Shown piece after piece: positions 704-31,610 of a stretch of DNA of 32,000 bases; position 1 is the stretch's first letter; each line of letters starts with the position of its first letter. Source of the DNA: Cupriavidus basilensis (GTDB lineage Bacteria > Pseudomonadota > Gammaproteobacteria > Burkholderiales > Burkholderiaceae); the NCBI RefSeq assembly GCF_029335485.1, contig NZ_JARJLM010000036.1, forward strand, positions 31,287 to 63,286, written 5' to 3'. The notes below the pieces were generated by a model. It ran no database searches. It was given only the letters and a program-made list of their open reading frames with translations, and had not been told where the DNA came from. A program made the position numbers and the translations under genes.

Positions 704-1065
704 CGCAGCGGCGAAGAGTGTGGCCATGTCCCGGTCAGTGCGGGGACGATCCGGCGTCAAGAAATCAAGGACCCGGAAAGCCAGAACGGGTAGCCTGCGC
801 CTGCGGCAGGTTGGGGGAGGGGGCACATCGTTTTGGATAGTGCCGCGCTTGAGTCCAATGACTTGCCATCCCCGTTTCCGCTTGTCGCCGATGTCCGGCA
901 AGGACATCACGTGCCAAGGCCACGCAGGCCGCAACCGGCGCCGTTACGGGCGGCAAGACACGCGTGAACGGACACCGTTCTCAGCCGCTCCGGACAGAGC
1001 CAGAGGGATGCGATTCGCGCGCGGGCTTTGTCTGCCTCGTTCAGGCTGCGAGCATACTTGTCAGG

Positions 1066-1530
1066 CTAGCGGCCGAAGCGCGTCCACAACCACCGGTCCA
1101 CGGACCAGTCGCCCGCGCCTCGGCTCAGCAGTACCAGCAGCATCGCCGCCCACTGAATGTGCGTGGGCCAGGCCTGTGGATAGACAAACACCTCGATGAC
1201 CGCAGTCATGCCGAGCAACACCAGCGCTACGGGCCGTGCGGCCAACCCGAGAACAAGTAGCACGGGCGTCGTCAACTCAATTGATACCGCCAGATAAGCG
1301 GCCAGTTCGGGCGGCAACAGAGGTACCCGGTACTCCTCCCTGAACAGCTCGAGGGCGGTATCCCAGTTAGCCAGCTTGCTCATCGCCGAGCTCCAAAAGA
1401 CTGTGGCCACCGCGAGTCGCAGCGGGATCGCAAGGACTGAGTACGGAATACGCTCAAGGCACGCGACCGCGTGCAGCGCGCGCTGGACCGCGGTCGTGCG
1501 GGTGTGAGCGGACGGTGCTGGATTTGTCAT
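1066..1530 (-). CDS. DoxX-family membrane protein, last gene of the bufferin-type operon
   Basis: The multi-TM sequence ('LRLAVATVFWSSAMSKL...', 'GAGDWSVDRWL') is DoxX-like. I chose the ATG at 1530 because it overlaps the stop of the upstream gene (ATGA at 1527-1530). The longer listed ORF (to 1701) has an Arg-rich, non-protein-like N-terminus. Confidence 0.8.
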   Translation of the reverse strand: MTNPAPSAHTRTTAVQRALHAVACLERIPYSVLAIPLRLAVATVFWSSAMSKLANWDTALELFREEYRVPLLPPELAAYLAVSIELTTPVLLVLGLAARPVALVLLGMTAVIEVFVYPQAWPTHIQWAAMLLVLLSRGAGDWSVDRWLWTRFGR

Positions 1531-2342
1531 GACGAAACGTCCCGGGTGCATTGATCGAAGGTCTGGGCAGCGATGCTGAAGCGCGTGAAGCATCCGCCGG
1601 CCAGAAGCGTGGCGAGCAAACTGTGTATCTCTGCCGGCGTTGTCTCGTCGAGGCAAGCATGGAGCGGCCGCCCCGCGAAAAGAGATGCCGCGATGCGCCA
1701 TTGGCAGCCGTGGAGCCGGTCGATAGCGATGCCGGACTCCGTATGGCGGATAAGCAAGCAGACCGGATCGCCGGCAATGTCGATTGCCTCTAGAGCGTCA
1801 TCGTCGTGGGCCAGCACCGCGCACCAGATAGCGTCCACCGGGTACTCGGATCGCATCAGTTGTGCCGCGGGATGCCTCTCGAAACACGTGCGCCCCATCT
1901 CGGCGTCCGTGAGGCACGTGAGTTGCGCCAATGCAAGGGGTGTGGCCTCAGGGGCATGCTGCACGGTGTTAATGGTCCATTCGAGCCGGGCAGTATCTGG
2001 CAGATAGGAAAGTGTCGCGGCTCGCGGCAGTTGCTCCAGGAAGTCCGGGAATGTCGAGCCGTATTCATCCAGCCACGCGCTCTGCGGTGGAGAAGCTTCC
2101 AGGAAGAGCCTGGCGGCTCCCTCGAAGAATTCCTCGCCGACGAGCGCCTGGACAGCCGGGTAGGAGAGGCGCAGTGCCGTGGATAGCACGCTGATGGCGG
2201 TGTTACGGTAGATGTTCAGCCGCGCTTGCGGTGCCAGGCCACCCGCGACTACGTAGGCCGTCACGCCATTATCGGCGCCGCGTAGCAGGCTCTGGCCGAA
2301 TGCGCGCTGGAGCTCAAGCAGAGTAGGGGCGGTCTGCGTCAT
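1527..2342 (-). CDS. bufC: DUF2063-family protein (BufC-like partner of the MNIO enzyme)
   Basis: 'LLELQRAFGQSLL...LNIYRNTAISVLSTALRLSYPAVQALVGEEFFEGAARLF' matches the DUF2063 N-terminal signature as I remember it. The ATG at 2342 overlaps the 3' end of the DUF692 gene by 29 nt. The stop overlaps the DoxX start. Confidence 0.8.
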   Translation of the reverse strand: MTQTAPTLLELQRAFGQSLLRGADNGVTAYVVAGGLAPQARLNIYRNTAISVLSTALRLSYPAVQALVGEEFFEGAARLFLEASPPQSAWLDEYGSTFPDFLEQLPRAATLSYLPDTARLEWTINTVQHAPEATPLALAQLTCLTDAEMGRTCFERHPAAQLMRSEYPVDAIWCAVLAHDDDALEAIDIAGDPVCLLIRHTESGIAIDRLHGCQWRIAASLFAGRPLHACLDETTPAEIHSLLATLLAGGCFTRFSIAAQTFDQCTRDVSS

Positions 2343-3204
2343 GGCGTTGGTGCTCCAGAGCTGTTTCGGCAATAGCAGCCTCACTCATCAGGACATCGAG
2401 CGCCGGCACATTGGTGTCCCATTCGATCAGCGTGGGAATCGGTCCGAACCGCTTGAGGGCTGCGCGATAGAGCTTCCAGACTTCCGGTGCAACACGCGAG
2501 CCATGGTCGTCGATGAGGATCGTTGGCCCCTGCTCGATTTGCCTGACGCTGTGACCGGCAAGATGGATCTCGCCGACCACCTCCGGCGGCAGCGCTGCAA
2601 TGTAAGCTGAGGCATCCCAGCCATGATTGCTTGCACTGACATAGACGTTATTGACGTCGCACAGAATGCCGCAGCCAGTGCGGCGCGCGACCGCGGAGAG
2701 AAACTCCCACTCCGGAATGGTGGAGTGACGAAAACGAAGGTAGGTCGAGGGATTCTCAACCAGGATGCGCCGCCTCAGGTGGGTCTGGACCTGATCGACG
2801 TGGCGGCATACGATGTCCAGCGCCTCTTCGGTCATGGGCAGGGGCAACAGGTCGCCAAGATACGTCCCGCCGGCGACGCTCCATGACAGGTGCTCCGACA
2901 CCAGTCCGGGCTCGATCCGCTCGACGACATTCCGTATTCGCGCAAGATGGGCCGGAACTAGCCCCTCGGCACTGCCCAGGGACAGGCCGACCCCATGCAG
3001 CGAGATGGGGTAGTCCCGGCGAATCGCGTCCAGGTAGCGCGCCGCCGTGCCTCCGCCCATGTAGTTCTCGCTATGTACTTCGAACCAGGCGACGCCAGGC
3101 CGTTCTCCGAGGACCTCTTGATGGTGCCGGAAGCGCAGTCCGACTCCCGCGCTGGCCGGAATCAGACCGAATGCGCCTTGCTTTGCCGCAATTGACGTAC
3201 GCAT
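2314..3204 (-). CDS. bufB: DUF692 / MNIO (MbnB-like multinuclear non-haem iron oxidative) enzyme
   Basis: 'GVGLRFRHHQEVL...WFEVHSENYMGGG...LHGVGLSLGS...SEHLSW...LVENPSTYL...IHLAGH...LIEWD' is the DUF692 TIM-barrel pattern. I chose the ATG at 3204 (MRTSIAAKQ). The upstream part of the 430-aa listed ORF overlaps the precursor gene in another frame and looks non-coding. Confidence 0.85.
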   Translation of the reverse strand: MRTSIAAKQGAFGLIPASAGVGLRFRHHQEVLGERPGVAWFEVHSENYMGGGTAARYLDAIRRDYPISLHGVGLSLGSAEGLVPAHLARIRNVVERIEPGLVSEHLSWSVAGGTYLGDLLPLPMTEEALDIVCRHVDQVQTHLRRRILVENPSTYLRFRHSTIPEWEFLSAVARRTGCGILCDVNNVYVSASNHGWDASAYIAALPPEVVGEIHLAGHSVRQIEQGPTILIDDHGSRVAPEVWKLYRAALKRFGPIPTLIEWDTNVPALDVLMSEAAIAETALEHQRHDADRPYSA

Positions 3205-3218
3205 CTGCAGGCACTCGC

Positions 3219-3539
3219 TTATGTGGCCTTCAGCTTGCCGCCTTGAATCTTGGTGCAGTCTCCTGCTGGCAACAGCACGAAAGATCTCGAATCGCGAGCT
3301 TGGGTGGATTGCCCGGCACAGGAATGGGCTCCTTCGGCGCAATCGTTCTTGGCCACGGCGTTGATCCCATAGCACTTTTCGAGCTTGCCCTTCTCCATCC
3401 TGGCCATGTTGTCCTTGACGATCTGCGGCATACCGCTCATGTCCTTCATGGCCTGTGCCTGAGCTGGCGCGGCCTGCATGGCGAGCGCCAGGCCAATCGC
3501 TGTCGACAGGGACGAGGCGGCCAATACATGCTTGTTCAT
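3219..3539 (-). CDS. bufA: DUF2282-type secreted RiPP precursor (bufferin BufA1-like), 106 aa
   Basis: There is a GGAGGA Shine-Dalgarno sequence upstream of the ATG at 3539. The Sec signal peptide is 'MNKHVLAASSLSTAIGLALAMQAAPAQA'. The four-Cys core is 'EKCYGINAVAKNDCAEGAHSCAGQS...LLPAGDCTKIQGG'. The gene lies 14 nt upstream of the MNIO gene. Confidence 0.8.
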   Translation of the reverse strand: MNKHVLAASSLSTAIGLALAMQAAPAQAQAMKDMSGMPQIVKDNMARMEKGKLEKCYGINAVAKNDCAEGAHSCAGQSTQARDSRSFVLLPAGDCTKIQGGKLKAT

Positions 3540-3593
3540 CTTGCATCCTCCGCACGCTTTTGCGGCCCCGGGGATTGGGGTCGTGTGAAGAGA

Positions 3594-3619
3594 TTCGGCG
3601 TGGCAAGGTAAAAGGTTAC
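3594..3619 (-). promoter_or_regulatory. Candidate ECF (SigF-type) promoter, GTAACC-N16-CGAA, upstream of the precursor gene
   Basis: The minus strand reads GTAACC (3619-3614), then exactly 16 nt, then CGAA (3597-3594). This is about 55 nt upstream of the bufA-like ATG. It matches the motif I recall for Caulobacter SigF-dependent promoters, a recollection that needs checking. Confidence 0.4.
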
Positions 3620-3802
3620 CTGCGGTATGAATATTTTTTGCGCGACAGAATTTCATCTTCGAAGCAAAATCCGAACATGCCCCAACATCCGGATCGTCGT
3701 GGCGCTCTCCACAGCCTCGTGAAGGAGGCTGCGGACTCGCTTGCGCCTGATCGCCAGCCGGAGCTGCCGGCAACTCGCCCCGACGGGACGCCCGATTGGT
3801 CT

Positions 3803-4327
3803 ATGGAAATGGAGCGGGCACAAGGTGGCGACCGCGGCGCCTACCGCCGTCTTCTGGAGGACATCACGCCCTACCTGCGGGCGCTCGCCGCGCGCCAGAT
3901 GCACAACCGGAGCGACATCGAGGACGCAGTACAGGACATCCTGCTAACGGTGCATTCGGTACGCCATACCTATGACCCTAGCCGCCCGTTCGGCCCCTGG
4001 CTAGTCGCCATTGCCAACCGGCGCATCGTCGACGGACTACGCAGGAGAGGGCGCACGGGGATTCACGAAACGCCGTTTGAATCCGAGAACGAAACCTTTA
4101 TGGATCCAGCCGCGAACCTGCAGGAAGAAGCGGTGGATGCGCGTACCGTACGCGAGGCCGTTCAACAGCTGCCGGCCGGACAGCGCGATGCGCTTCGCAT
4201 GCTGAAGCTTGAGGAGATGTCCCTGAAGGAGGCGTCGGCAGCTAGCGGTATGTCGGTCGCGGCGTTGAAAGTGGCCGTCCACAGGGCTTTGAAAACGCTG
4301 CGTAGATTGATAGGCCCCGCGAGGTAG
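3803..4327 (+). CDS. sigF: ECF-family RNA polymerase sigma factor (SigF-like)
   Basis: Region 2 is 'DIEDAVQDILLTVHSVRHTYDPSRPFGPWLVAIANRRIVDGLRR'. Region 4 is 'LPAGQRDALRMLKLEEMSLKEASAASGMSVAALKVAVHRALKTLR'. The start is uncertain. ATG 3803 (MEMERAQGGD) gives a typical ECF length. ATG 3677 is an in-frame alternative with weaker third-position GC. Confidence 0.85.
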   Translation: MEMERAQGGDRGAYRRLLEDITPYLRALAARQMHNRSDIEDAVQDILLTVHSVRHTYDPSRPFGPWLVAIANRRIVDGLRRRGRTGIHETPFESENETFMDPAANLQEEAVDARTVREAVQQLPAGQRDALRMLKLEEMSLKEASAASGMSVAALKVAVHRALKTLRRLIGPAR

Positions 4328-4333
4328 CGAAAG

Positions 4334-4987
4334 ATGATTCCGACCGCCGACTTGATCGACTCTCTCGTTGAAAATGCACCGCCCATACGACGGCTTCGCT
4401 CACCTGTCGTGCGCGCAGCGTGCTGGCTGCTGTTTGCTGTGTTGGTGCTCGCGCTTGTCGCCGTTGGTCATGGCGTGCGGTCGGATTTGGCGCTCAAGCT
4501 TCATCAGCCCGCGTTTGTGATCAGCATTGCCAGTGCATTGGCGACGGGCGCGATGGCAGCGGTAGCGGTATTCCTTGCCAGCATCCCGGGCCGGTCTCGG
4601 CGATGGCTGCTATTGCCGGCACCGGCAATGCTCGTCTGGATCTCCACAATCGGCTACGGCTGCCTGACTGGCTGGATAAGCATCGGCCCGGATGGTCTGA
4701 ACCTTGGCGAGACAGCACGCTGCTTTGCGACATTGGCAATGGTAAGCATACCGCTGTCGCTAGCGTTGCTGATCATGCTGCGCTATGTGGCGCGGTTGGC
4801 GCCAGCGTCGATCGCAATGGTGGCCAGCCTGTCGATCGCCGCCATGGCAGCGACTGCCCTTTCACTCCTCCACCCGTTGGATGCTACGCTTATGGTCCTT
4901 ATCTCGAATCTCGGCGTCGCAGCCCTTTTTTTACTGGCTGGTGGCCTATTGGGTCACCGGCTCTTCGGGTGGGTAGCTACGGTGTGA
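4334..4987 (+). CDS. nrsF: DUF1109 / NrsF-like six-TM anti-sigma factor
   Basis: It starts 7 nt after the sigma gene, with a GAGG RBS. The N-terminus 'LIDSLVENAPPIRRL' is followed by about six hydrophobic segments, and Cys residues sit in loop regions ('GYGCLTGW', 'ETARCFATL'). This is the typical NrsF architecture. Confidence 0.8.
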   Translation: MIPTADLIDSLVENAPPIRRLRSPVVRAACWLLFAVLVLALVAVGHGVRSDLALKLHQPAFVISIASALATGAMAAVAVFLASIPGRSRRWLLLPAPAMLVWISTIGYGCLTGWISIGPDGLNLGETARCFATLAMVSIPLSLALLIMLRYVARLAPASIAMVASLSIAAMAATALSLLHPLDATLMVLISNLGVAALFLLAGGLLGHRLFGWVATV

Positions 4988-5179
4988 GGGCCTTCATGCA
5001 AGAATCATGCGGGCTGTGCGGATGCGGTGTGCCAAGAAGATTAAGAAACGCAATGGCGTGTGTATCACTCCGATGATTGCGGACCTTGCGAAAGCGCTCC
5101 CGGCACTGTTAGAAAAATGTCGTGAAATGCATCCGAGCCCGCGAGCCGAATCGTCAATGCCTGCAGTCAACGATCAAGT

Positions 5180-5494
5180 TCAGTCATCGTCGTCGTGCCA
5201 ACGATGCCAATCGCGGTGTCGCTCGCGCCATTCGCGTTCTCTCCAGCGTCTTTCACGCCATTGCTGTTCGCGCCATGCACGGGCTTGCCAATCGTCGTAG
5301 TAGCCGGGCGCAACCACGACCGGCTGGGGGGCGACATAAACGGGCGCCGGCTCATAGTAAACGGGCGGGGGAGGCGCAACCACGGCCGGCCAAGGCAGGC
5401 CGATGCCAATTCCTACGTCGACTCGTGCCTCGGCGACGCCTGAGATAAGGCCGGCGGCGCCAGCCAGCAGGCCAATTGCCAAGATCTTTCGCAT
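5180..5494 (-). CDS. Small secreted protein with a Pro/Val-rich (PXPV-like) segment and a W/R/E-rich, acidic C-terminal tail
   Basis: AGGAG RBS is present. The signal peptide is 'MRKILAIGLLAGAAGLISGVAEA'. It is followed by 'PPPPVYYEPAPVYVAPQPVVVAPGYY' and then 'WREQQWRERRWREREWRERHRDWHRWHDDDD'. Confidence 0.6.
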   Translation of the reverse strand: MRKILAIGLLAGAAGLISGVAEARVDVGIGIGLPWPAVVAPPPPVYYEPAPVYVAPQPVVVAPGYYDDWQARAWREQQWRERRWREREWRERHRDWHRWHDDDD

Positions 5495-5986
5495 GATGCT
5501 GCTCCTGATGATTCTGCAAGTACTCTATGCCGCCATTGTTCAGTTGCGTATTCGCAGAATTAAAGACGGGTTACCGTCTGTAACGATGCGCATGCTGCAG
5601 CGTTGACGCCTTGGCCGATGGAAGGGCGCCAATCGTGTAAGCAGGTGTATCAGGAGCGCATGCACCTATTGCCGACCCATAGCGTTGCCGCTGCAGAATA
5701 CATATGACATCAATATTGCTTGTCATTAAATAAAAACATTTAACGTCTTATGGGATGTTTCAATCTACTGACAACTTTCGCCTTCAAGCGTTAAATAGAT
5801 CTCTTTTTCGGTCAATATTTGCATCCGAGCAACACTTTCTCTCCTGGCTAAACTTTCGGGCGAAGTGGGCTGTGAACTTGCTGGTCGTCTCTCTATAATC
5901 CGGAATGCAAATTATTTGTATTCGTCTTTCGATGCGAATGCAGATGTACCGACCATAAGAAATCGCGCGCGACGCGCACCAGGGAT

Positions 5987-6682
5987 ATGACAACAAGAGC
6001 CAGCCGCGCGCAACGGCATCAGGGGAGGAGACGTGGGCGTGGATTGGCCAGCTGGGCCGCGACGGCCACGTGTAGCTTCCAGCCTAGTGGCAAGGCGGTG
6101 GACGGCTTCTTCCGCGATGGCCGCGCGGCCTCGCTGGCCGATCAGGCCGAGTTGCCGTTCACCACGCTTTTCGAGATGGCCAATGCCTCGGCGGACGAAG
6201 TGCTCGCGCGATTGCTGACGCACCCCTACCTGGCTGAGTTCACTGCGGTCCCGATCCGCACGCGTTTGTGCGGCCCATTCAAGGTGCCGGCCCTGCGCGA
6301 GATCGCGCTGACCGCACCGTATTTCCACAATGGCGTGTTCGAGACGCTTGAGGAAGCCGTGACGTGGTACATCACGCGCGATACCGATTCCACGCGCTGG
6401 TACCTCAAGGCTGACGGCACCCCCGGCATCCCTTGCAACGACCTGCCCACGGCTTATGTCGGCCATATCAACGTGGCCGAAGTGCCCTACATCCCCCGCC
6501 TGGCCCCGACTCTGACCAATAGCGAGATCGCCGATCTGGCGCGTTTCCTGTGCGCCCTGACCGACGGGTTCGATGTCACCAATCCGGCGGCCTGCCAAGT
6601 ACCGGCGCAATGCCAGTCCACCGCGGCCAGTGTGGCCGCTACGCGCGCCGGAGCGGCTGCGCTTGCCACGCAAAGCAACTAA
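5987..6682 (+). pseudogene. Di-haem cytochrome c peroxidase (CCP/MauG family) remnant lacking both CXXCH haem motifs
   Basis: It keeps 'FFRDGRAASLADQAELPF..EMANAS' and 'FKVPALREIALTAPYFHNGVFETLEEAV', both CCP hallmarks. There is no CXXCH anywhere. Only about 60 aa separate the two blocks, which are far further apart in the CCP-family layout as I recall it. The N-terminal third is replaced by AT-rich DNA. Confidence 0.5.
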
Positions 6683-6697
6683 ACAGGAAGGAGAGAG

Positions 6698-8083
6698 ATG
6701 AAACGAACCATGATTGCCGCGGCGGTGCTCGCCGCGGTGGGGACGCCTGCGCTTGCCGCACCGGGCAATGCCAGCCCGGTGGTGGTGCAACAGCTCGAGC
6801 GCAGGATTGACGACATGGCCAGCCAGCTCGACGCCCTCAAGGCCGAACTCAAGGCCATGAAGGCGCAGAACACGGCGCTGGCGACGCAGCAGCAGACGCA
6901 GGCCAGGCAGCAAGCCGACCAGACCGCCCAGGTTGCGCAGCTGCAGGCCTCGCAGGAAAGCCTGCAGCAGGTCGCCGCCAAGCCGTCGCCGCTGGATAAC
7001 CTGAGCGTGTTCGGCTACGGCGAGATCAACTATTCGCGTCCGACCCGCAACACCAACGATACCCGCGCCGATATCGGGCGTGCCGTGTTCGGCTTCGGCT
7101 ACCGCTTCGACGAGAAGACCCGCTTTGCCTCCGAGTTCGAGGTCGAGCACGCAATTGCCTCTTCGTCCGATCCCGGCGAGTTCGAGGTGGAGCAGTTCTA
7201 CGTCGACCACATGTTCACCCCCAAGGTCGGCATGACCGCCGGCCTGTTCCTGATGCCGGTCGGTCTGATCAACGAGCATCACGAGCCCACCGCGTACTAT
7301 GGCGTCTACCGCAACTTCGTCGAGACCCTGATCATCCCCAGTACCTGGCGTGAAGGCGGTTTTGCCCTGCACGGCAATACGGATATTGGTCTCGACTGGA
7401 ACGTGGGCCTGACCACCGGGCTCGATCTGGCCAAGTGGAATTTCGCGACACAGACCCCACTCTACAATTCCGCGCTGGAACTGCAAACCAATAGCGTGGC
7501 GCCAATGCAGGCGACCCACCAGGAAATGGCCCTGGCCAATGCGAAGAACGCCTCGCAGTATGTGTCGCTGAACTATCGCGGCGTGCCCGGGATGCTGCTG
7601 GGTGGCTCGGTGTTTACCGGTAACGCAAACCCGGCGCCAGGCGCCGGCAGCCAGCGTGCGACCCTCTGGGAGACCCATGCGCGCTGGACACCAGGCAAGT
7701 GGGACCTGTCCGCGCTCTATGCGCAGGGCAGCATCAGCAATACCGCCAAGGTCAACGCCCAGTTCCCCGGCACCGCGAACCCGATGCCAGCCTCCTTCTA
7801 CGGCTGGTACCTGCAGGCTGCATACAGCCTGTGGCAGCACGGCAGCTATCGTGCTGTGCCGTTCGCGCGCTATGAGCGCTACAACATGGGCGCCAAGTAT
7901 GACGGCATCGCCCCGGACTTCTCGGCGCAGGCAACGGGGTTCCCCAAACCGTACGATACGGTCTGGACGGCAGGTCTGAACTTCTACCTGAACCCGAACG
8001 TGGTGTTCAAGGTCGATTACCAGCGCTTCCGAACCAACCGCGATTTCAGCCGGTTTGACCTGGGTCTGGGCGTTTATTTCTGA
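6698..8083 (+). CDS. Outer-membrane beta-barrel porin with an N-terminal coiled coil
   Basis: Strong RBS (GGAAGGAGAG). Signal peptide 'MKRTMIAAAVLAAVGTPALA'. A Q/A/L-rich heptad segment follows. Alternating beta-strand pattern ends in a C-terminal 'LGLGVYF' with terminal Phe. Confidence 0.75.
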   Translation: MKRTMIAAAVLAAVGTPALAAPGNASPVVVQQLERRIDDMASQLDALKAELKAMKAQNTALATQQQTQARQQADQTAQVAQLQASQESLQQVAAKPSPLDNLSVFGYGEINYSRPTRNTNDTRADIGRAVFGFGYRFDEKTRFASEFEVEHAIASSSDPGEFEVEQFYVDHMFTPKVGMTAGLFLMPVGLINEHHEPTAYYGVYRNFVETLIIPSTWREGGFALHGNTDIGLDWNVGLTTGLDLAKWNFATQTPLYNSALELQTNSVAPMQATHQEMALANAKNASQYVSLNYRGVPGMLLGGSVFTGNANPAPGAGSQRATLWETHARWTPGKWDLSALYAQGSISNTAKVNAQFPGTANPMPASFYGWYLQAAYSLWQHGSYRAVPFARYERYNMGAKYDGIAPDFSAQATGFPKPYDTVWTAGLNFYLNPNVVFKVDYQRFRTNRDFSRFDLGLGVYF

Positions 8084-8155
8084 CCGTTCACCCGCTACCC
8101 CGGCACACCGGCGCCTTCACTGTGCGTCGATTTGCCGGCGACAAAGGAAGCATCG

Positions 8156-8716
8156 ATGCGTTACCAGTCTGTTCCTACCGTTCTCGTCTGTGCCGCCGCG
8201 GCGGCCACTGCGGGATTCGTCGTGACCAAAGTGCACGCGGCGGAATACATGAGCGTGGCCGACAGCCAGAGAGTGATGTTCGCCGACGCCACTGAGTTCG
8301 TGCCGCTGGTAGTGGCGCTTAACCCGGACCAGCTCAAACAGCTCGCGGAACGAGCGGGCGGGCCGCCGCGCATGGGTGCATGGCGGATCTGGCAGGCACG
8401 TCAGGGCAGCAACCTGCTCGGCTATGTGGTGGCAGACGCTGTCATCGGAAAGTTCGAACTGATCAACTACGCGGTTGCGCTGAGCCCGGCTGGCGAGATC
8501 CGGGACGTGGAGATCCTGGCCTATCGAGAAAGCCACGGCTACGAGGTTCGCAACAAGCCTTGGCGTAGCCAGTTCACCGGCAAGTCCGCCCAGTCCCCGC
8601 TGCGCATCGGCGATGATATCCAGAACATCAGCGGCGCCACGCTTTCGTGCACCCATATCACCGACGGTATTCGCCGCATCGCAGTGATGGCGCAGATGGC
8701 GCTGGCGAAGGGCTGA
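8156..8716 (+). CDS. Secreted FMN-binding domain protein (flavinylation substrate)
   Basis: RBS AAGGAAG. Signal peptide ends 'VHA/AE'. FMN_bind-type motif 'DIQNISGATLSC', where the Thr of SGAT is the usual FMN attachment site. Confidence 0.8.
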   Translation: MRYQSVPTVLVCAAAAATAGFVVTKVHAAEYMSVADSQRVMFADATEFVPLVVALNPDQLKQLAERAGGPPRMGAWRIWQARQGSNLLGYVVADAVIGKFELINYAVALSPAGEIRDVEILAYRESHGYEVRNKPWRSQFTGKSAQSPLRIGDDIQNISGATLSCTHITDGIRRIAVMAQMALAKG

Positions 8717-8723
8717 GCGCATC

Positions 8724-9530
8724 GTGGGCAATGTCGCCGATCTTGCGCAATGCCGCCGCGCTCGCCCTTTGTTGGGCACGCTGGTTGAGATCCAGGCGCG
8801 CGGCGCCGGCGCCGCCGAGGCGGTGCGCACAGCATTCGGTCAGATTGAAGAGATACATCGCCTGATGAGCCGTTACGAACCAGCCAGCGATATTGGCCGT
8901 TTCAATGCGGCCCCGGTGGGCTGGCCGATCGAGATGGATGTGCGCACGCTTGCCGTGCTTGCCGTCGCGGCCGAGTTGCAGGTGGCGAGCGATGGCGCCT
9001 TCGATTGTGAGCGAAGTCCGGCGCAGTCGCCCTCCGGCTGCCCCGGCTGGACCCTCGAAGGCGCGGTGCTGCGTAAGCATCGGCAAGTGCGTCTCGACCT
9101 GGGTGGTATCGCAAAGGGCTACGCGGTGGATTGCGCTATCGAAGCCTTGCGCAGCTTCAGCCTCGACTACGCGCTTGTCAACGCGGGCGGCGACATGCGT
9201 CATGCCGGTGCAGCGCCGGCACGGGTTGCGCTGCGCGAGCCGGGTTCGCCGGCACGCACCGCCATGATGTGGCAACTCGATAACGCGGCGCTCGCGAGTT
9301 CAAGTGTGGGGGGCCTGGCGCCACCGCCCGGCGCGGCGCCGCGCATTTTCAGCCGACGGGAACCCTTGGAGCTGCCGGCAGCAGCCGGCGCCACCGTGCT
9401 GGCACCTTCGTGCATGCTGGCAGATGCCCTGACCAAGGTGGTCCTGGTCTGCCGCGCGCCGCGGCATCCGCTGCTGGCGCGGTATGGCGCCTGTACGCTG
9501 CTCTATCGCGATGGCAAACTACGCGGCTAG
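8724..9530 (+). CDS. apbE: ApbE-family FAD:protein FMN transferase with no recognisable signal peptide or lipobox
   Basis: 'LLGTLVEI', 'LDLGGIAKGYAVD', 'VNAGGD' and 'LADALTKV' are ApbE signature blocks. GTG start sits 8 nt after the FMN-binding gene. Confidence 0.85.
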   Translation: MGNVADLAQCRRARPLLGTLVEIQARGAGAAEAVRTAFGQIEEIHRLMSRYEPASDIGRFNAAPVGWPIEMDVRTLAVLAVAAELQVASDGAFDCERSPAQSPSGCPGWTLEGAVLRKHRQVRLDLGGIAKGYAVDCAIEALRSFSLDYALVNAGGDMRHAGAAPARVALREPGSPARTAMMWQLDNAALASSSVGGLAPPPGAAPRIFSRREPLELPAAAGATVLAPSCMLADALTKVVLVCRAPRHPLLARYGACTLLYRDGKLRG

Positions 9531-9549
9531 CAAATCCCCATCCGAGCCG

Positions 9550-10008
9550 ATGTCCAATCTCCACTCCCACCAGCCTCGCTGGACTTTCCGCATCAGTCGA
9601 CAGCGGCTTTGGGCCTTGTATGCTGCGTTCACGCTGCTGTTGCTGACCGGCTTGACGTGGCTACTTGTGCGCTTTCTGGCGGCTGAGCCCGAGACGCTGG
9701 CACCGTGGCAAGCGTGGAGCATGAAGTTGCACGGTGCGGCGGCGCTGATCGTCATGTTTCTGCTTGGAATGATCTGGTCGGCGCATATCCGTCACGCTTG
9801 GATCCGGCGTCACAACCGCCTGGCAGGCGGGCTGTTTGGAGCCGTCATCGTACTGCTGGTCGCCAGCGGTTATGGCCTCTACTATTTCAACGGTGAAGGC
9901 CTGCGCAGTCTGACCGAGTGGCTACACTGGCTTTGCGGCGTCGCCATTGGCGGGCTGTTCTGGGTTCACTTGGCCGCAGGGCGTCGTTCTGTGGCTGGCC
10001 GCAAGTGA
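9550..10008 (+). CDS. Four-TM His-containing membrane protein (DUF4405/cytochrome b-like candidate)
   Basis: ATG at 9550 (MSNLHSH). Four hydrophobic segments carry conserved-looking His residues ('KLHGAAALIV', 'SAHIRHAW', 'EWLHWLCG', 'FWVHL'). It lies directly downstream of apbE. Confidence 0.55.
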   Translation: MSNLHSHQPRWTFRISRQRLWALYAAFTLLLLTGLTWLLVRFLAAEPETLAPWQAWSMKLHGAAALIVMFLLGMIWSAHIRHAWIRRHNRLAGGLFGAVIVLLVASGYGLYYFNGEGLRSLTEWLHWLCGVAIGGLFWVHLAAGRRSVAGRK

Positions 10009-25182: not shown

Positions 25183-25334
25183 CGACCCTTCCCAAGAAAA
25201 CCGCCCGCTGCACCAAATACGCCCAACAGAATGCACATCAACCCGACGCCGAGCACGAACTTTACGTACTGCGAATACCCTGCCACTTGAAGGCAAACAG
25301 CAAAAATCAGCAGCACGAAAGACGCAAAGATCAT
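25179..25334 (-). CDS. Unlisted 51-aa two-TM peptide (hand-translated)
   Basis: Hand translation gives MIFASFVLLIFAVCLQVAGYSQYVKFVLGVGLMCILLGVFGAAGGFLGKGR. The stop overlaps the next ATG. The Shine-Dalgarno is weak and distant. Confidence 0.35.
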   Translation of the reverse strand: MIFASFVLLIFAVCLQVAGYSQYVKFVLGVGLMCILLGVFGAAGGFLGKGR

Positions 25335-25453
25335 TTTCACTGTTAGCTCCCAATCAGATTCTTCGTTACGTAACGTTTAACAGCCATTAAATCTATTTTA
25401 TGTTACTAGTAACGAATAATCAATATCCGTTACATTTCTAACCGTAACGAAAA

Positions 25454-26605
25454 TTAGCGTCGATACCCAAACCGAGGTTTTTCCGGCTGATCGAGCGCTT
25501 CGAGATCCATCGCAGACGGTGACCGGCGATTGTCTAGCACCACGAACTGCGGCATTGGCGCGGGCTTTGCCGCTTCCGGTGGCGGAGCCGGCGCCACGAC
25601 CGGGACCGGCTGCGCAACCTGTTGCGGACGCTCCCCATCCGGATCAAACGCCATGAAAAACCCGGTCTGCACGATCTGCGCGCATTGATCCTTCTGAACC
25701 GGCAACCGCGTGCCCTGCTGCGTGTAGCAATTGCAACCGCCCTTGAACGTGACACACGCCGCAGGCACCGGCACCCGCTTTGGCTTGGTCAAGTCATCGT
25801 AAGCCGGCGCGGTGTAGTCCAGCCCAGGAATCCGCGGCGTGTACGACTGCACATACTCCGCAGTGGTCAGCGGGCGCGCACGCCGATCCCCTTCCGTGCC
25901 ATACGCAATCTGCCCGCCCTTCTGCGAACCTGCCGCCTGCGTGAGCTCAGCCTCGCCGTGCATCGGCTTGTAGACCTTGCGATAGCCCACATACCCCAAC
26001 AGCACCAGCGCGGCAATCGAGAGCGGCACAATGGCCATCACCTTGGGAGGAATCTTCCGCTTGACGGTATGCACCTCCGCAGACTTGTACAGGCCATACA
26101 CCGACTTGGGAAACTTGAAAGTGGAGCGTTGCGAATCCTTCCGTCCGGCCGGCTTGTCGCAGTTCTCCCGCACCGCATTCCACTCGTGCAAGCTCGACGC
26201 CTGCGCGCCAAACTTGCGCACCAGATGGATATGCCGACCGCACAGCCGGCGCACATTGTTGTCCAGCAACATCGGATGCTGCGTGAACAACCACAGCCGA
26301 ATCCCGCGATGACGCAATGTCTCCAACTCACTCACCCAACGCGGCACCGCTGCACCGTTGGCACGCACCCGAAACAGCTTCTGTGCCTCATCAATGAACA
26401 CCACCGAGCCATCCGGCACGTCCGGCCAGTCCTCCGGTTTTTCCAAAGGCAACCACGGCAACACAAGCTCATTGATCCCGTGATAGAACACTGCCCCCTC
26501 CTTCGCGCCCTCCTCTTCCCAAAGCTTCTTGACCGAGTGAATGCCAAAGAGGGTTTTGCCATTCCCTTGCAGACCCGTAACCAGGGTAACAACCGAGGTA
26601 CTCAT
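25454..26605 (-). CDS. Zot/pI-family filamentous phage assembly ATPase
   Basis: The ATG at 26605 overlaps the pVI-like stop (ATGA). Walker A is 'GLQGNGKT'. 'VFIDEAQ' is Walker B-like. A central TM segment and a Pro-rich C-terminus follow. Confidence 0.9.
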   Translation of the reverse strand: MSTSVVTLVTGLQGNGKTLFGIHSVKKLWEEEGAKEGAVFYHGINELVLPWLPLEKPEDWPDVPDGSVVFIDEAQKLFRVRANGAAVPRWVSELETLRHRGIRLWLFTQHPMLLDNNVRRLCGRHIHLVRKFGAQASSLHEWNAVRENCDKPAGRKDSQRSTFKFPKSVYGLYKSAEVHTVKRKIPPKVMAIVPLSIAALVLLGYVGYRKVYKPMHGEAELTQAAGSQKGGQIAYGTEGDRRARPLTTAEYVQSYTPRIPGLDYTAPAYDDLTKPKRVPVPAACVTFKGGCNCYTQQGTRLPVQKDQCAQIVQTGFFMAFDPDGERPQQVAQPVPVVAPAPPPEAAKPAPMPQFVVLDNRRSPSAMDLEALDQPEKPRFGYRR

Positions 26606-26901
26606 TTCAGCACCATCTTGGTAATTTTGTCTGAGGTCAAACCAGACAACACCAGACGCGCCGCCACCGCCGAAAAGAAGATGCTGACGCACACATCAAG
26701 CTTCACCAGCGCAAGCACCTGGACGAACTCAATCGGCAGCGCGCCCAGGTTCGACAACACCTGCGCCTTGTAAGAATCGATCAGCACCGACAAGCCACTG
26801 TAGGTCACGTAAGAAATGCTCAGCGCGATCAACACGCGCCCCACCATCGAGGCCGCAATGGACACCAACCCGCCAAGCAGAGACAGTAGAAATACCGGCA
26901 T
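26602..26901 (-). CDS. pVI-like minor coat protein (DUF2523-like)
   Basis: A 99-aa hydrophobic protein, 'MPVFLLSLLGGLVSIAASMVGRVLIALSISYVTYSG'. It sits between the pIII-like and Zot genes, with overlapping start and stop codons. Confidence 0.65.
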   Translation of the reverse strand: MPVFLLSLLGGLVSIAASMVGRVLIALSISYVTYSGLSVLIDSYKAQVLSNLGALPIEFVQVLALVKLDVCVSIFFSAVAARLVLSGLTSDKITKMVLK

Positions 26902-28298
26902 TATTTAACCCCTCCCATTACGATCTTCGCCGCACCCAACATCGAAATGGCCACGAACAGCGTGCCGATGTAGGACAGATACTGATTCAGCCGAGAGAAC
27001 GGAAACGTGATCGCCTGACCCGACACAGTGAACGTCTTGTCTTGCAACCCGCCGCTACCCGCCAAGAACGCCGACTGATCGATCGAACTACTCAACGCTA
27101 AGGTAGTCCGTTGGGTCGCATCCGCCGGATTTGACACCGTATCGTTGCCAGCAAGAATGTTCCCAGCAAGGGCACTCTGTGGGTTCGCCTTCTGGTTATC
27201 GCACCGCGTCCCATATTCCTGCTTAACCATCATGCACTGCACCGCATCACCGTTGCACACCGGCGGCGATGTGCAGTCATCCCCGCCCGATGCTTGGCTT
27301 TGATCCGTGCCCTTGCACACCTTGTCGTTCGGGTTCGTTGCGCAAAAACTGTCCTTCGGTTCCGTGGTCGAAGTTTTCGTGCCGTCCGGATTCGTCTTCG
27401 TCTGCGTGACCGACTGCACGCCATTCACGTTACTGACATTGGTCACCGTATTCGTGGTCTGAGCCGCAGCCTGAACCCCGCTCGCATCGGTGGCCTGCGT
27501 AGTCTGCGACGTGTTCTGCTGTACTGTCGAATTCGGAACGGTCCCAGCCTGGGCGCACATCCCAACGCCGTTCACCGTGCCGTAAATCAAACCACGCTTC
27601 TGGCAACTGACCAGCGACGGCGGATCGGTCGCCTTGGTCGTCGTATCGATGGTGTCGTAATTCGCCCCGCTACAGGTAGCCCCGGTCCCCATGCCGATAT
27701 CAGAGGCATAGCTCGTGCCGGACTGCACACCAACCGAGCCTCCAGGGTAGGCGCAACCCTGAATGCAGATCGTGCTCGGCAAGGACGTTGCCGTGCCCTG
27801 TACCGAAGCCCCCAGGTACTTCGACTTGACAGCAGCATCCGTACATACAGGCCCAGGCGAAGAACACTGATTCGCAAGCGGCTTCGTTGTATCCGGTGCA
27901 ACACCATTCGCGCACCAAGCCCCAAAGGTATAAACAGTCCCCTGATTGGCTGTTTGCACGAACCCATCACTATTACGCTTCATAGTGACTGAACACGCCG
28001 AGACCCCAGCCACATACCCAGGCGTGCCTTGCATAGTCCAACCAACCATTGCAGTAGCCCATGGCCCTGGCAAGACATCCGAACACACAGCCGCTTGGGA
28101 TGTGCGGATATAGGACGCATCCTTGTAGTTCACATTGTTGTAATTCAGGTAATAGCCCGTCACGGGCGCATCAGCACGAGCCTCAGAATCCCAAATCAGG
28201 CCACAGGCACACAGAGCCAAGATAATGAGACTGACACGAGCCAGGAGGCGACTTGTCCAAAGCAGCGCACCCCGAAAGCACCAACACGACCAAAACAT
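26901..28298 (-). CDS. pIII-like adsorption/minor coat protein
   Basis: GAGGGG RBS. It has a signal sequence, a Cys-rich N-terminal domain, a T/Q/N-rich low-complexity linker and a C-terminal membrane anchor ('YIGTLFVAISMLGAAKIVMGG'). Confidence 0.7.
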   Translation of the reverse strand: MFWSCWCFRGALLWTSRLLARVSLIILALCACGLIWDSEARADAPVTGYYLNYNNVNYKDASYIRTSQAAVCSDVLPGPWATAMVGWTMQGTPGYVAGVSACSVTMKRNSDGFVQTANQGTVYTFGAWCANGVAPDTTKPLANQCSSPGPVCTDAAVKSKYLGASVQGTATSLPSTICIQGCAYPGGSVGVQSGTSYASDIGMGTGATCSGANYDTIDTTTKATDPPSLVSCQKRGLIYGTVNGVGMCAQAGTVPNSTVQQNTSQTTQATDASGVQAAAQTTNTVTNVSNVNGVQSVTQTKTNPDGTKTSTTEPKDSFCATNPNDKVCKGTDQSQASGGDDCTSPPVCNGDAVQCMMVKQEYGTRCDNQKANPQSALAGNILAGNDTVSNPADATQRTTLALSSSIDQSAFLAGSGGLQDKTFTVSGQAITFPFSRLNQYLSYIGTLFVAISMLGAAKIVMGGVK

Positions 28299-28310
28299 AG
28301 ACGACCCCTC

Positions 28311-28373
28311 TCATTTGTGCGTGAACATGATCCAAGCCGCGCCAACCAGCGCCAGAATGACGAAAACACCCAT
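28311..28373 (-). CDS. Unlisted 20-aa hydrophobic peptide (pVII/pIX-like position)
   Basis: Hand translation gives MGVFVILALVGAAWIMFTHK. GAGG lies 5 nt upstream. It sits between the coat terminator and the pIII-like gene. Confidence 0.3.
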   Translation of the reverse strand: MGVFVILALVGAAWIMFTHK

Positions 28374-28384
28374 AGGAGCCTCGC

Positions 28385-28410
28385 AAAAAAAATGGGGACC
28401 ATCGGCCCCC
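28385..28410 (-). terminator. Rho-independent terminator immediately after the major coat gene
   Basis: The minus strand reads GGGGGCCGATGGTCCCC followed by T8. Filamentous phages classically have a terminator after gene VIII. Confidence 0.7.
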
Positions 28411-28437
28411 GAAAAACTAAAAGAGCCCGCTAGAGCC

Positions 28438-28626
28438 TTACAGCGCCGAACGCAGCCACTTCACAGCCTTGACCGCCAACACGATCAGGATCACACCGGC
28501 CCCGACCGTGGCCGCATCCGTCGCACCGGTGCTCAGTGCCGTGCTGACAGCCGGATCGATAGCAGCATTGGCAGCGCCAGCAGCCATCAGGGGAACCGCA
28601 TAGCCCAGCTTACGAACAAGTTTCAT
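28438..28626 (-). CDS. Major coat protein (pVIII-like)
   Basis: 62 aa. The signal peptide ends 'ANA/AIDP'. The mature part has an acidic N-terminus, a hydrophobic core 'VGAGVILIVLAV' and a basic C-terminus 'KAVKWLRSAL'. Confidence 0.8.
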   Translation of the reverse strand: MKLVRKLGYAVPLMAAGAANAAIDPAVSTALSTGATDAATVGAGVILIVLAVKAVKWLRSAL

Positions 28627-28667
28627 TTTTCCAACTCCCGAAAATGCCGGAATGCCCCGGCAGGCTC

Positions 28668-28916
28668 TCAGCTAAGCGCCGAGGTATCGTCGCCCGACGC
28701 CAGAGCGCCAAGCACTGCACGTATCGCGTACGCAACCGCCCAAACCAAGAGAATCGCCGTACCGATCGTTTGCCCATCGCCCGCTGACAACGCCAGCGGA
28801 TTGTTCAGAAACTCCGACGACGCCTGCACCACATAGGCACAGGTGCTCAAGTCAGCCGGCTGCGGGCTGACCGCAACCAAAGCACCGGAGCCGTTGACCT
28901 GAACACATAGCGCCAC
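28668..28916 (-). CDS. Small phage membrane protein (hypothetical)
   Basis: GTG start. C-terminal TM segment 'IGTAILLVWAVAYAIRAVLGAL'. It lies in the structural module upstream of the coat gene. Confidence 0.45.
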   Translation of the reverse strand: MALCVQVNGSGALVAVSPQPADLSTCAYVVQASSEFLNNPLALSAGDGQTIGTAILLVWAVAYAIRAVLGALASGDDTSALS

Positions 28917-28919
28917 GAC

Positions 28920-29162
28920 TCACCCCTCCTGCATGTCTTTCAGCAGCTCATCGACACACGCATTCAAGGCTTCGACATGCACCTCAACGTCGCAATCGCC
29001 TTGAATCAGCCCGCGCAGATACGCACACGCCTGCACAAGCTTCGGACCACCATAACGACCCACTTCCAGCAGAATCGCCAGCAGCGTCGCTATCTCGACC
29101 GGCCTGAGCGAAATCGAAAAATTCCGCTCCTGCTGATGCAAAAAATCTTGCGTATCTTCCAT
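28920..29162 (-). CDS. Phage hypothetical protein
   Basis: 80-aa ORF tightly packed in the module (3-nt and 6-nt gaps) with an AAGGG RBS. I recognise no domain. Confidence 0.45.
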   Translation of the reverse strand: MEDTQDFLHQQERNFSISLRPVEIATLLAILLEVGRYGGPKLVQACAYLRGLIQGDCDVEVHVEALNACVDELLKDMQEG

Positions 29163-29168
29163 AGCCCT

Positions 29169-29363
29169 TTAACCCCTCTCGTTGAAAACGGCCACCACGT
29201 CGAACGCTTCGTCGCAGTGATCGCTCGCGGTCTCAAATGCCTCTTCACGCGATTCGAACGTGCCCGCTTCCTTCAGGCGGTGCGTGAAGCCCACGTCCCC
29301 GGAATACGGGCACAGGAACATGCCCGAATCCACCTCCTGAACAACGAACACAACCGCGCCCAT
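29169..29363 (-). CDS. Phage hypothetical protein
   Basis: 64-aa acidic ORF starting 2 nt after the preceding gene. I recognise no domain. Confidence 0.45.
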   Translation of the reverse strand: MGAVVFVVQEVDSGMFLCPYSGDVGFTHRLKEAGTFESREEAFETASDHCDEAFDVVAVFNERG

Positions 29364-29365
29364 GG

Positions 29366-29659
29366 TTAGGCCGCCTTGATAGGCGAGAGGCTGTGCACGA
29401 TGGTCTTGGAGGTCTTGCCGTTGCTGACGATCTCCATGTCAGCCTTCGCCATGAACGGGAAAGGCAGCTTTTCGTACTTGGCGAATTCGTCGGAGGTGCC
29501 AACGTTGTATTCACCCGCCGCCATCCCCTTGGCCGTACCCTTCGACGCATCCAGCGGCGTCACGATGTACGCCTTCGTGCTGTCGTATGTCTGGCCGTTG
29601 TCCATCGCACCCTTACTCGACTTCATGCCGAGCACTTGAACTTCCGTCGTAAAACGCAT
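29366..29659 (-). CDS. Probable ssDNA-binding protein (gV-like by size and position)
   Basis: 97 aa, AGGGGAAG RBS, immediately downstream of the Rep gene. The sequence is beta-rich. The assignment is positional only. Confidence 0.5.
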   Translation of the reverse strand: MRFTTEVQVLGMKSSKGAMDNGQTYDSTKAYIVTPLDASKGTAKGMAAGEYNVGTSDEFAKYEKLPFPFMAKADMEIVSNGKTSKTIVHSLSPIKAA

Positions 29660-29679
29660 CTGACTTCCCCTAAGCGCGG

Positions 29680-30936: not shown

Positions 30937-30938
30937 GC

Positions 30939-31112
30939 TTACCACTCCCCCATCAAGCCGCCGAGCATGAACAACTCATGACAAAGACCAACCTCAACAT
31001 CGCACCCGATTGCAATCGAATCACGACAAGCCGAAACCGTGACCTCACGCTCCCACAGCAGCCGAAGCAGGCGATCCCGATTGATTTCCATCAACAACGT
31101 GTAGGCGTCCAT
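30939..31112 (-). CDS. Small phage ORF (57 aa) ending ...LGGLMGEW
   Basis: The ATG at 31112 overlaps the preceding stop (TGATG). It is a paralogue-like partner of the upstream 40-aa ORF. Confidence 0.4.
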   Translation of the reverse strand: MDAYTLLMEINRDRLLRLLWEREVTVSACRDSIAIGCDVEVGLCHELFMLGGLMGEW

Positions 31113-31234
31113 CACCACTCCCCCATCAGGCCGCCGAGAGCGTGCAGGCAAGCCCGCGCACCAGCCCGGTTATCACCATGCTCAAGCGCGGAGCACAGGA
31201 CCGAATACAAGACATTCGCGCCAATCACTCGCAT
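31112..31234 (-). CDS. Unlisted small phage ORF (40 aa) ending ...LGGLMGEW
   Basis: Hand translation gives MRVIGANVLYSVLCSALEHGDNRAGARACLHALGGLMGEW. Both its start and its stop overlap the neighbouring ORFs. Confidence 0.3.
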   Translation of the reverse strand: MRVIGANVLYSVLCSALEHGDNRAGARACLHALGGLMGEW

Positions 31235-31440
31235 CACGCTGCCCCCTCCAACCAACTCGGACGCCGACCGCAACCATGCCCACCCGCGACCACCATCCCA
31301 AACGGCCCAGACAAGCCTTCACCGCGCAGGAGCATCTCCACTGCTGCGCAGGCGTGCGCACCATCGATCGCGTAGACCTCAAACGACCGTTGACCGGTCG
31401 GAAGCGCCACAACGATGACAAAGACCCGTTGCCCACTCAT
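31234..31440 (-). CDS. Small phage ORF (68 aa)
   Basis: ATG at 31440 (MSGQRVFVIVVALPTGQRSFEVYAIDG...). It is start/stop coupled on both sides. Confidence 0.4.
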   Translation of the reverse strand: MSGQRVFVIVVALPTGQRSFEVYAIDGAHACAAVEMLLRGEGLSGPFGMVVAGGHGCGRRPSWLEGAA

Positions 31441-31571
31441 CAGGCACCCCTCCGCACGTCCACAAGCGCCGAGGCGATGCGCGTAGCGGCCCACAGGCCC
31501 GCCCACGCACCCACAGCGGCGGCGGCACCCACGCCCGCTGCAACAGCCAGTAGCAAGCCCATTTGCGCCAT
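31440..31571 (-). CDS. Unlisted 43-aa single-TM peptide, first ORF after the operator region
   Basis: Hand translation gives MAQMGLLLAVAAGVGAAAAVGAWAGLWAATRIASALVDVRRGA. GGGG lies about 8 nt upstream. Confidence 0.3.
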   Translation of the reverse strand: MAQMGLLLAVAAGVGAAAAVGAWAGLWAATRIASALVDVRRGA

Positions 31572-31610
31572 TCGTTTACCCCTGTTCGTTTACCGACTAC
31601 ACTCCGGCCT

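Follow-up and report, generated by a model that had tools for sequence, protein, structure and literature searches.

In Caulobacter, SigF, a sigma factor of the extracytoplasmic function (ECF) type, controls DUF2282-DUF692-DUF2063-DoxX operons, which form the core of its regulon, and NrsF restrains SigF (PMC3511200). Such operons encode bufferins, which are peptides made by the ribosome and modified after translation (RiPPs). BufB and BufC are both required, and together suffice, to form the thiooxazoles of the bufferin precursor, which is exported by Sec (PMC11626156). The bufferin binds Cu2+ tightly (Kd about 6e-15 M) and aids growth under copper stress (PMC11626156). A genome-wide census of 2025 listed DUF2282, multinuclear iron oxidase (MNIO), DUF2063, and DoxX as the core of the bufferin cluster, with sigma factor and NrsF genes as regular companions in Buf1 clusters, and catalogues now contain thousands of bufferin clusters that include sigma/NrsF genes. 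[quoted passage not shown] Furthermore, SigF/NrsF was dissected in Azospira suillum (PMC4436054), and an operon of Bordetella pertussis is cited as BvgAS controlled (PMC11626156). Here, we analyzed a six-gene locus of this type, located at positions 1066-4987 of a 32,000-nucleotide stretch of Cupriavidus basilensis DNA (contig NZ_JARJLM010000036.1, positions 31,287 to 63,286; the whole stretch is referred to below as the window).

Open reading frame (ORF) listing and translation confirmed the six-gene architecture that an earlier note on this DNA had described in this interval, with all reading frames intact and all coordinates correct. The genes and the predicted promoter are the following (aa, amino acids).

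1066-1530, minus strand: bufD, DoxX-family membrane protein, 154 aa (PF07681, 4.5e-16, residues 36-117, 59.7 bits)
1527-2342, minus strand: bufC, DUF2063 partner protein of the MNIO, 271 aa (PF09836, 1.4e-23, residues 10-102)
2314-3204, minus strand: bufB, MNIO (DUF692) enzyme, 296 aa (PF05114 MbnB_TglH_ChrH, 3.4e-106)
3219-3539, minus strand: bufA, bufferin-1 precursor (DUF2282/BufA1), 106 aa (PF10048, 1.1e-20)
3594..3619, minus strand: predicted ECF16/SigF-type promoter of the buf operon (exact GTAACC-N16-CGAA match)
3677-4327, plus strand: ECF sigma factor gene, SigF/EcfF/RpoQ-like, 216 aa (Sigma70_r2, 3.1e-13; Sigma70_r4_2, 3.3e-11)
4334-4987, plus strand: nrsF, DUF1109/NrsF polytopic membrane anti-sigma factor, 217 aa (PF06532, 3.9e-28, residues 11-213)

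We conclude that the locus is very probably a complete, intact, and typical bufferin cluster of the buf1/gig type with its own ECF16 sigma/anti-sigma switch. This reading, which bears out the bufferin-type RiPP operon and SigF/NrsF-like pair proposed in the earlier note, is supported by the family assignments, by the conserved synteny, and by a conserved ECF16 promoter before bufA. Profile hidden Markov model searches placed the six ORFs in DUF2282, DUF692 (MNIO), DUF2063, DoxX, Sigma70_r2/r4, and DUF1109 (NrsF), and all six products exceeded the curated Pfam cut-offs. The genes bufABCD are adjacent on the minus strand in the order precursor, MNIO, DUF2063, DoxX (3539 to 1066). They are separated by 14 nt between bufA and bufB, overlap by 29 nt between bufB and bufC, and share an ATGA (-4 nt) between bufC and bufD. 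The sigma factor and nrsF genes form a pair on the plus strand, with 6 nt from the sigma stop to the nrsF start, and diverge from bufABCD across an intergenic region of 137 nt.

For comparison, 80 related loci were used, defined as loci encoding BufB relatives in species-representative genomes. The regulator pair was counted in the 56 of them that have a full upstream flank, and 43 of these keep the same divergent sigma plus NrsF pair; the arrangement is thus no chance juxtaposition. The closest BufB relatives in the species-representative genomes are 74-79% identical and belong to Cupriavidus, Polaromonas, Paraburkholderia, and Caballeronia, and relatives closer than the CH34 set are also present on Burkholderiales plasmids and chromids. 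In addition, an identical sequence was found on a Logan assembly contig (SRR22859030), where the same genes were called except for a truncated DoxX.

The Caulobacter SigF binding sequence is GTAACC-N16-CGAA (PMC3511200), and in work on Brucella, the consensus for ECF16 is (T/C)GTAAC-N17-CGAA (PMC8315932). In the window, the minus strand carries a -35 box GTAACC (3619..3614), a 16-nt spacer, and a -10 box CGAA (3597..3594), placed 55 nt upstream of the bufA ATG within the divergent intergenic region. This is the only exact match in the 32 kb, at a chance expectation of 0.11, and at least one match occurred in 10 of 100 shuffles. Since this single-match statistic is weak alone, conservation of the motif was examined in the relatives. 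Indeed, 58 of the 80 related loci contain the exact motif on the BufB strand, approximately 400-450 nt upstream of bufB and thus just upstream of bufA. The spacer is 16 nt long in 45 of 47 extracted promoters, and the extended consensus reads cGTAACCTTt-N13-CGAAc. Matches with one mismatch at 4091, 8453, and 31613 all fall at positions assigned to coding sequence and were treated as noise, not as further promoters; a total of four matches, exact or with one mismatch, was reached in 2 of 100 shuffles (expected, 1.05). Terminator-like matches in 800-5600 were at background level.

The promoter is also kept where the regulator is not a neighbor. Two Paraburkholderia loci (L008 and L028, at about 3599-3624) have the exact promoter and no sigma/NrsF pair within 3 kb upstream, suggesting ECF16 control in trans, as for Caulobacter buf2. 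The conserved promoter offers a simple sequence rule for predicting ECF16-controlled bufferin operons, even if the regulator is encoded elsewhere. A few kilobases from the buf operon, additional exact ECF16 motifs were observed in L002 (255-280, plus strand), L015 (412-437, minus strand, and 1087-1112, plus strand), L034 (3132-3157, plus strand), L042 (2627-2652, plus strand), and L059 (2394-2419, plus strand). They may point to other members of the regulon or to precursor genes in tandem.

The precursor BufA scored 73.8 bits against PF10048 (cut-off, 22.4; residues 54-103), and its gene is preceded by a ribosome-binding site, GGAGGA, at 3546-3551, as read from the sequence. It is predicted to carry a Sec-type signal peptide, judged heuristically by hydropathy and direct reading: The N terminus is basic (Lys3/His4), residues 5-19 form a hydrophobic core with a mean hydropathy of 1.84, and residues 26-28 and 28-30 form AXA motifs, two possible signal peptidase sites. 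Cys56, Cys67, Cys74, and Cys95 are invariant when the window BufA is aligned with its homologues from 56 related loci and with GigP of C. metallidurans (58 sequences in total), and the alignment has the conserved core LEKCYG.N...KNDC..G.HSCAGQ...R...SFV..P.G.C.KI.G. In their NDC and HSCAG contexts, these sequences agree with the residues reported to adjoin the heterocycles of Buf1. Cys67 (NDC) and Cys74 (HSCAG) are the predicted thiooxazole sites, and a disulfide is predicted between Cys56 and Cys95. In the bufferin study, copper-dependent loss of nuclear magnetic resonance signals was seen at Lys24, Ser30, and Ala32, the direct neighbors of the two heterocycles, and a disulfide was predicted together with a -10 Da product (PMC11626156). 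For the signal-cleaved window peptide, the computed monoisotopic mass is 8086.93 or 8286.03 Da, and the shift expected with modification is -10.08 Da. A search of PDB sequences with BufA gave nothing usable.

A linker (residues 31-48; MKDMSGMPQIVKDNMARM) with five Met in 18 residues connects the signal peptide of BufA with the DUF2282 core. It is kept in most of the aligned relatives displayed, which come from Cupriavidus, Polaromonas, and Paraburkholderia loci and from several alphaproteobacterial metagenome-assembled genomes, and is absent from GigP. The linker could supply thioethers for Cu(I) binding or be an oxidant sink like MrpX.

BufB reached 385.5 bits against the NCBIfam equivalog model NF050167 (MNIO_BufB, "MNIO family bufferin maturase"; cut-off, 310), and remained below the cut-offs of the other MNIO models (HvfB, 222.5/360; ApyH, 80.7/400; MbnB, 42.7/325; ChrH, 32.1/600). 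In line with this assignment, it is predicted to turn Cys67 and Cys74 of BufA into 5-thiooxazoles. The solved structure nearest by sequence is 3BWW (1.3e-37), with TglH and MbnB more distant, and the BufB motifs LHGVGLS, SEHLS, VENPS, DVNNVY, HLAGH, DDHG, and IEWD align with it. Residues within these motifs are putative iron ligands, as in MbnB structures. BufC, with 83.4 bits against PF09836 (cut-off, 27.2), has no relative detected by a PDB sequence search; its start was called at the same position on the Logan contig, and its length of 271 aa is compatible with the described class of two-domain DUF2063 partners of approximately 250-260 aa with a RiPP recognition element (DUF2063-RRE; PMC12452194). 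The bufD ATG overlaps the bufC stop codon. The shorter DoxX call of 105 aa on the Logan contig (L001, 6733-7050) was rejected, since the Pfam DoxX domain begins upstream of its Met; this call is probably wrong, and the ATG in the ATGA overlap gives the protein of 154 aa.

These assignments also bear on annotation. The earlier note held that all genes of the locus are labeled as DUFs, which is true of a 2024 RefSeq plasmid annotation, but is outdated now that NCBIfam uses the maturase name given above; on the Logan contig, the precomputed Pfam labels already read BufA1, HvfC_N, and NrsF. Its view of a poorly described system was overstated, given that bufferin chemistry, copper affinities, and in vitro reconstitution have been available since 2024 (PMC11626156). 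Likewise, the betaproteobacterial version cannot be called untested, because knockouts, reporter fusions, and transcript maps exist for gigPABT/rpoQ-rsqA of CH34 (PMC10304878, PMC13492112). As one more intact example of a family counted in thousands, the locus matters little alone.

A real difference was seen in the anti-sigma factor. Sigma70_r2 and Sigma70_r4_2 were the domains matched in the sigma factor, and since a DUF1109 partner is the hallmark of ECF16 (PMC8315932), the sigma factor is, by partner and promoter, assigned to ECF16. An alternative start at the internal ATG at 3803 was rejected, since the residues upstream of it (M.RHP..., DG..DWS) are conserved in relatives. NrsF scored 99.1 bits against PF06532 (cut-off, 26.8), with 204 of 204 profile positions covered. 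A crude hydropathy scan showed five clear segments, the expected third transmembrane helix (TM3, about residues 92-110) being under the threshold.

Work on homologues has pointed to two Cys residues. In Caulobacter NrsF, C131 and C181 are both required to restrain SigF, and the C. metallidurans orthologue conserves both (PMC3511200). Bradyrhizobium OsrA requires C129 to keep EcfF bound and cannot release it on H2O2 without C179; both residues are conserved in Brucella AbcS (PMC8315932). C. metallidurans RsqA has C130 and C180. In our alignment, Cys130 of the window NrsF matches the first conserved Cys and is shared by all 46 sequences; in a wider alignment, 101 of 108 sequences have Cys in this column. 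The column of RsqA Cys180 is occupied by His180 in the window NrsF and is His in 45 of the 46 sequences, with RsqA as the sole exception, and the Pro that follows this residue aligns in both proteins. The equivalence of Caulobacter C181 and H180 goes via RsqA, the 50-residue spacing, and the statement in PMC3511200, Caulobacter NrsF itself being outside the alignment. Furthermore, C110 is present in 45 of the 46 sequences and absent from RsqA. Judged by these alignments, the sensing Cys that is used or conserved in all four characterized homologues is absent from the NrsF of this lineage.

To this we can add that the variant is not rare. A HMMER scan of 1.84 billion cluster representatives returned 1079 NrsF-like clusters, and among the top 150 of these, 86 of 106 full-length proteins (31-58% identical to the query) show the C110/C130/H180 pattern. 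The three residues are among the twelve most conserved NrsF positions. By its alignments, this is a large NrsF subfamily with sensing residues unlike those of every tested homologue, widespread and not special to the window. The crude hydropathy profile and the positive GRSRRW loop would put all three residues on the periplasmic face, with the TM3-TM4 loop bounded by C110 and C130 and the TM5-TM6 loop containing H180. A PDB sequence search with NrsF yielded nothing usable. With a conserved His in place of the sensing Cys and one more conserved Cys, this NrsF may respond to a different signal or sense it by a different chemistry. Tentatively, C110/C130/H180 could be a Cys2His site sensing copper or another thiophilic metal by coordination and not by thiol oxidation, an idea we consider possible and rather less than even. 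If it is true, this lineage would have a dedicated metal-sensing switch for bufferin production. The Cys/Cys/His variant is the only feature here that is not already in the literature examined, and the conserved set is a mutagenesis target for asking what ECF16 switches beside bufferin operons sense.

Taken together, the data suggest the following model. As in Caulobacter NrsF and Bradyrhizobium OsrA, the polytopic inner membrane protein NrsF would hold the sigma factor at the membrane. Envelope stress would free it, the candidate signals being copper or gold, Cr(VI) or Cd, and oxidants such as hypochlorite. The sigma factor would then take RNA polymerase to GTAACC-N16-CGAA, and bufABCD would be transcribed together as a tightly coupled unit. 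Both this promoter and the gene coupling are seen in the sequence; we infer their use in the cell. In the cytoplasm, by homology to Caulobacter Buf1, BufB and BufC would convert Cys67 and Cys74. The BufA precursor would be exported by Sec and cleaved by signal peptidase after Ala28 or Ala30, Cys56 and Cys95 would join as a disulfide, and the mature periplasmic mini-protein of 76-78 residues would chelate excess copper.

Several points weigh against a copper-buffering bufferin cluster under its own switch. For this organism, we infer expression, modification, and metal binding. The sigma gene has no ECF16 motif with zero or one mismatch upstream of 3677 on the plus strand. An autoregulatory ECF16 promoter precedes the sigma gene in Bradyrhizobium, C. 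metallidurans, and partly in Caulobacter; such a promoter is not universal in the family. The window NrsF lacks an equivalent of the Cys179/181 that OsrA and NrsF require for the signal response. In CH34, the closest betaproteobacterial relative studied, the share of Gig in resistance to copper is small (PMC10304878), and when the gig transcription start sites were mapped, RpoQ dependence was not demonstrated (PMC13492112). Finally, according to transposon fitness data, DUF692/DUF2063 operons of three gammaproteobacteria are tied to chlorite, not copper, resistance.

The last point leads to a different reading of the same cluster, in which its main job is defence against reactive chlorine or oxygen and not copper buffering, with NrsF as an oxidant sensor like its counterparts in Azospira, Brucella, and Bradyrhizobium. 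By virtue of its thiooxazoles and Met-rich linker, the peptide would be a sacrificial scavenger, or it would limit copper-catalyzed oxidative damage. ECF16 systems indeed respond to hypochlorite or chlorite in Azospira suillum (PMC4436054) and Brucella melitensis (PMC8315932) and to H2O2 in Bradyrhizobium, and DUF692/DUF2063 operons are of importance to chlorite resistance in Pseudomonas stutzeri, Kangiella, and Shewanella. Moreover, the BufA linker recalls the Met-rich MXKDX-type scavenger peptides that are under ECF16 control in Azospira and Brucella. Because of these oxidant-responsive switches, the chlorite fitness data, and the linker, defence against reactive chlorine or oxygen is a serious alternative or additional role. 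As the main job we consider it unlikely, however. The copper affinity of Buf1 is very high and growth under copper stress is improved (PMC11626156), the window NrsF has no counterpart of the oxidant-sensing Cys179, and no methionine sulfoxide reductase gene (yedYZ/msrPQ) with an ECF16 promoter was found in the window.

Returning to a bufferin cluster with its own ECF16 switch, it could be objected that the adjacent sigma/NrsF pair does not drive buf, and that another sigma factor or a distant promoter does, as was proposed for gig. There, no RpoQ dependence was seen and a far-upstream RpoH promoter was assigned (PMC13492112), and gig was upregulated in an rpoQ deletion mutant (PMC10304878). 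For the window, this is very improbable in view of the exact promoter 55 nt before bufA and its conservation in the relatives, and a scan of 800-5600 for sigma-70 promoters detected none. The CH34 case itself also looks different on inspection. In the CH34 locus (L082; NC_007974.2, 1312500-1318000), the gigP/rpoQ intergenic region has two exact motifs, one at 2644-2669 on the minus strand facing gigP and one at 2704-2729 on the plus strand facing rpoQ. The published rpoQ start, TSS_1315237, maps to position 2738 of L082 and is thus located 9 nt past the CGAA in the box on the plus strand. The study reported no ECF16 motif there or upstream of gig, and its table gives -35 AATTCG and -10 GGTTAC (PMC13492112), which is the reverse complement of the Caulobacter/Brucella consensus with the two boxes swapped. 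With the consensus listed in reverse, the CH34 motif may have been missed, which suggests that the reported lack of an ECF16 promoter in C. metallidurans merits reexamination.

That the cluster is a silent or decaying copy without current function is extremely unlikely: Nothing specific speaks for it beyond the fact that some genomes hold many bufferin clusters of unclear functionality (2025 census), and it is opposed by six intact reading frames, conserved motifs with invariant Cys, an intact promoter and ribosome-binding site, and the identical sequence on a second contig.

The surroundings of the locus were also inspected. On the source contig, it is flanked on both sides by copper and flavin redox genes: Upstream of the window (L001, 1-5272) are genes for NosR, the copper enzyme NosZ (N2O reductase), a cytochrome c, and ApbE, and within it, 5987-10008 encodes a CCP_MauG-like protein, a porin, an FMN_bind protein, a second ApbE, and a cytochrome b561-like protein. 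Convergent with nrsF is a gene for a small secreted PXPV-repeat protein (5180-5494, minus strand), whose C-terminal tail is rich in Trp, Arg, Glu, and His (WREQQWRERRWREREWRERHRDWHRWHDDDD). A chromate resistance pair is located 13 kb from the bufferin locus, with ChrA at 18105-19307 (PF02417, 2.8e-78) and ChrB at 19338-20492, both on the minus strand. Its proximity is notable given the chromate response of SigF/NrsF in Caulobacter. The pair (18105-20492, minus strand) is not preceded by an ECF16 motif. The region of about 23000-32000 has a G+C content of 0.54-0.60, versus about 0.62-0.65 elsewhere, and a strongly negative GC skew from about 24 kb. It encodes a Zot-like ATPase (25454-26692, minus strand) and a Rep_trans replication initiator (29680-30945, minus strand), and by these features resembles an integrated prophage of the filamentous (Inovirus) type; 23.2-32 kb had no megablast match among phage genomes.

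Among known systems, HvfABC of the oxazolins (Haemophilus), MbnABC of methanobactin, and TglHI share the enzyme superfamily PF05114 with BufB and, like the window, pair an MNIO with a partner protein to modify Cys of a ribosomal precursor. In contrast to these systems, the window enzyme passes the BufB cut-off only, not those of the HvfB, MbnB, ApyH, and ChrH models, and its precursor is a DUF2282 protein, not an EGKCG-repeat protein or MbnA.

On the regulatory side, EcfF-OsrA of Bradyrhizobium, SigF-NrsF of Azospira suillum, and BcrS-AbcS of Brucella have, like the window, an ECF sigma gene followed immediately by a gene for a DUF1109 anti-sigma factor; the anti-sigma factors of this type have six TM helices, of which five are clear in the window NrsF. 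They use a GTAAC-N16/17-CGAA promoter and control a small envelope stress regulon in response to H2O2 or hypochlorite. Their targets are methionine sulfoxide reductases and Met-rich scavenger peptides, whereas in the window the predicted target is the bufferin operon. OsrA and AbcS have C129/C179, whereas the window NrsF has C110/C130/H180.

The betaproteobacterial counterpart, gigPABT/rpoQ-rsqA of CH34 (Rmet_4682-4687), has the identical divergent six-gene layout and, like the window, ECF16 motifs between the two divergent gene groups. The CH34 proteins match those of the window with identities of 47% for BufB/GigA, 54% for BufD/GigT, 46% for BufC/GigB (N-terminal part only), 37% for BufA/GigP, 35% for sigma/RpoQ, and 30% for NrsF/RsqA; at these values, the window proteins are judged not to be orthologues of the CH34 set and to represent a different lineage. 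Unlike the window NrsF, RsqA has the classical C130/C180 pair and is without C110. GigP is without the Met-rich linker, and the exact motif that faces rpoQ in CH34 has no counterpart in the window. No experimental work on this particular lineage was found in the literature searched, a search that was not exhaustive. Given the 30-54% identity to the CH34 proteins and the different NrsF residue pattern, the lineage may remain experimentally new ground.

The buf1ABCD operon of Caulobacter vibrioides (CCNA_03363-03366 / CC3254-3257) with sigF-nrsF (CC3253-3252) comprises the same four biosynthetic genes in the same order. As in the window, genes for an ECF16 sigma factor and a DUF1109 anti-sigma factor adjoin the operon, and GTAACC-N16-CGAA is located upstream of the precursor gene. 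The Buf1 precursor resembles the window BufA in its Sec signal peptide, its four Cys, and the NDC and HSCAG sequences at the modified Cys. The two systems differ in the regulator, in that the window NrsF carries His where the functional C181 would align, together with the additional conserved Cys110, and in that no SigF-type promoter was detected for the window sigma gene, whereas the sigF promoter of Caulobacter resembles that of CC3254 (PMC3511200). They also differ in the peptide, since the window BufA has the Met-rich linker and a predicted mature length of 76-78 aa, versus 68 aa in Caulobacter.

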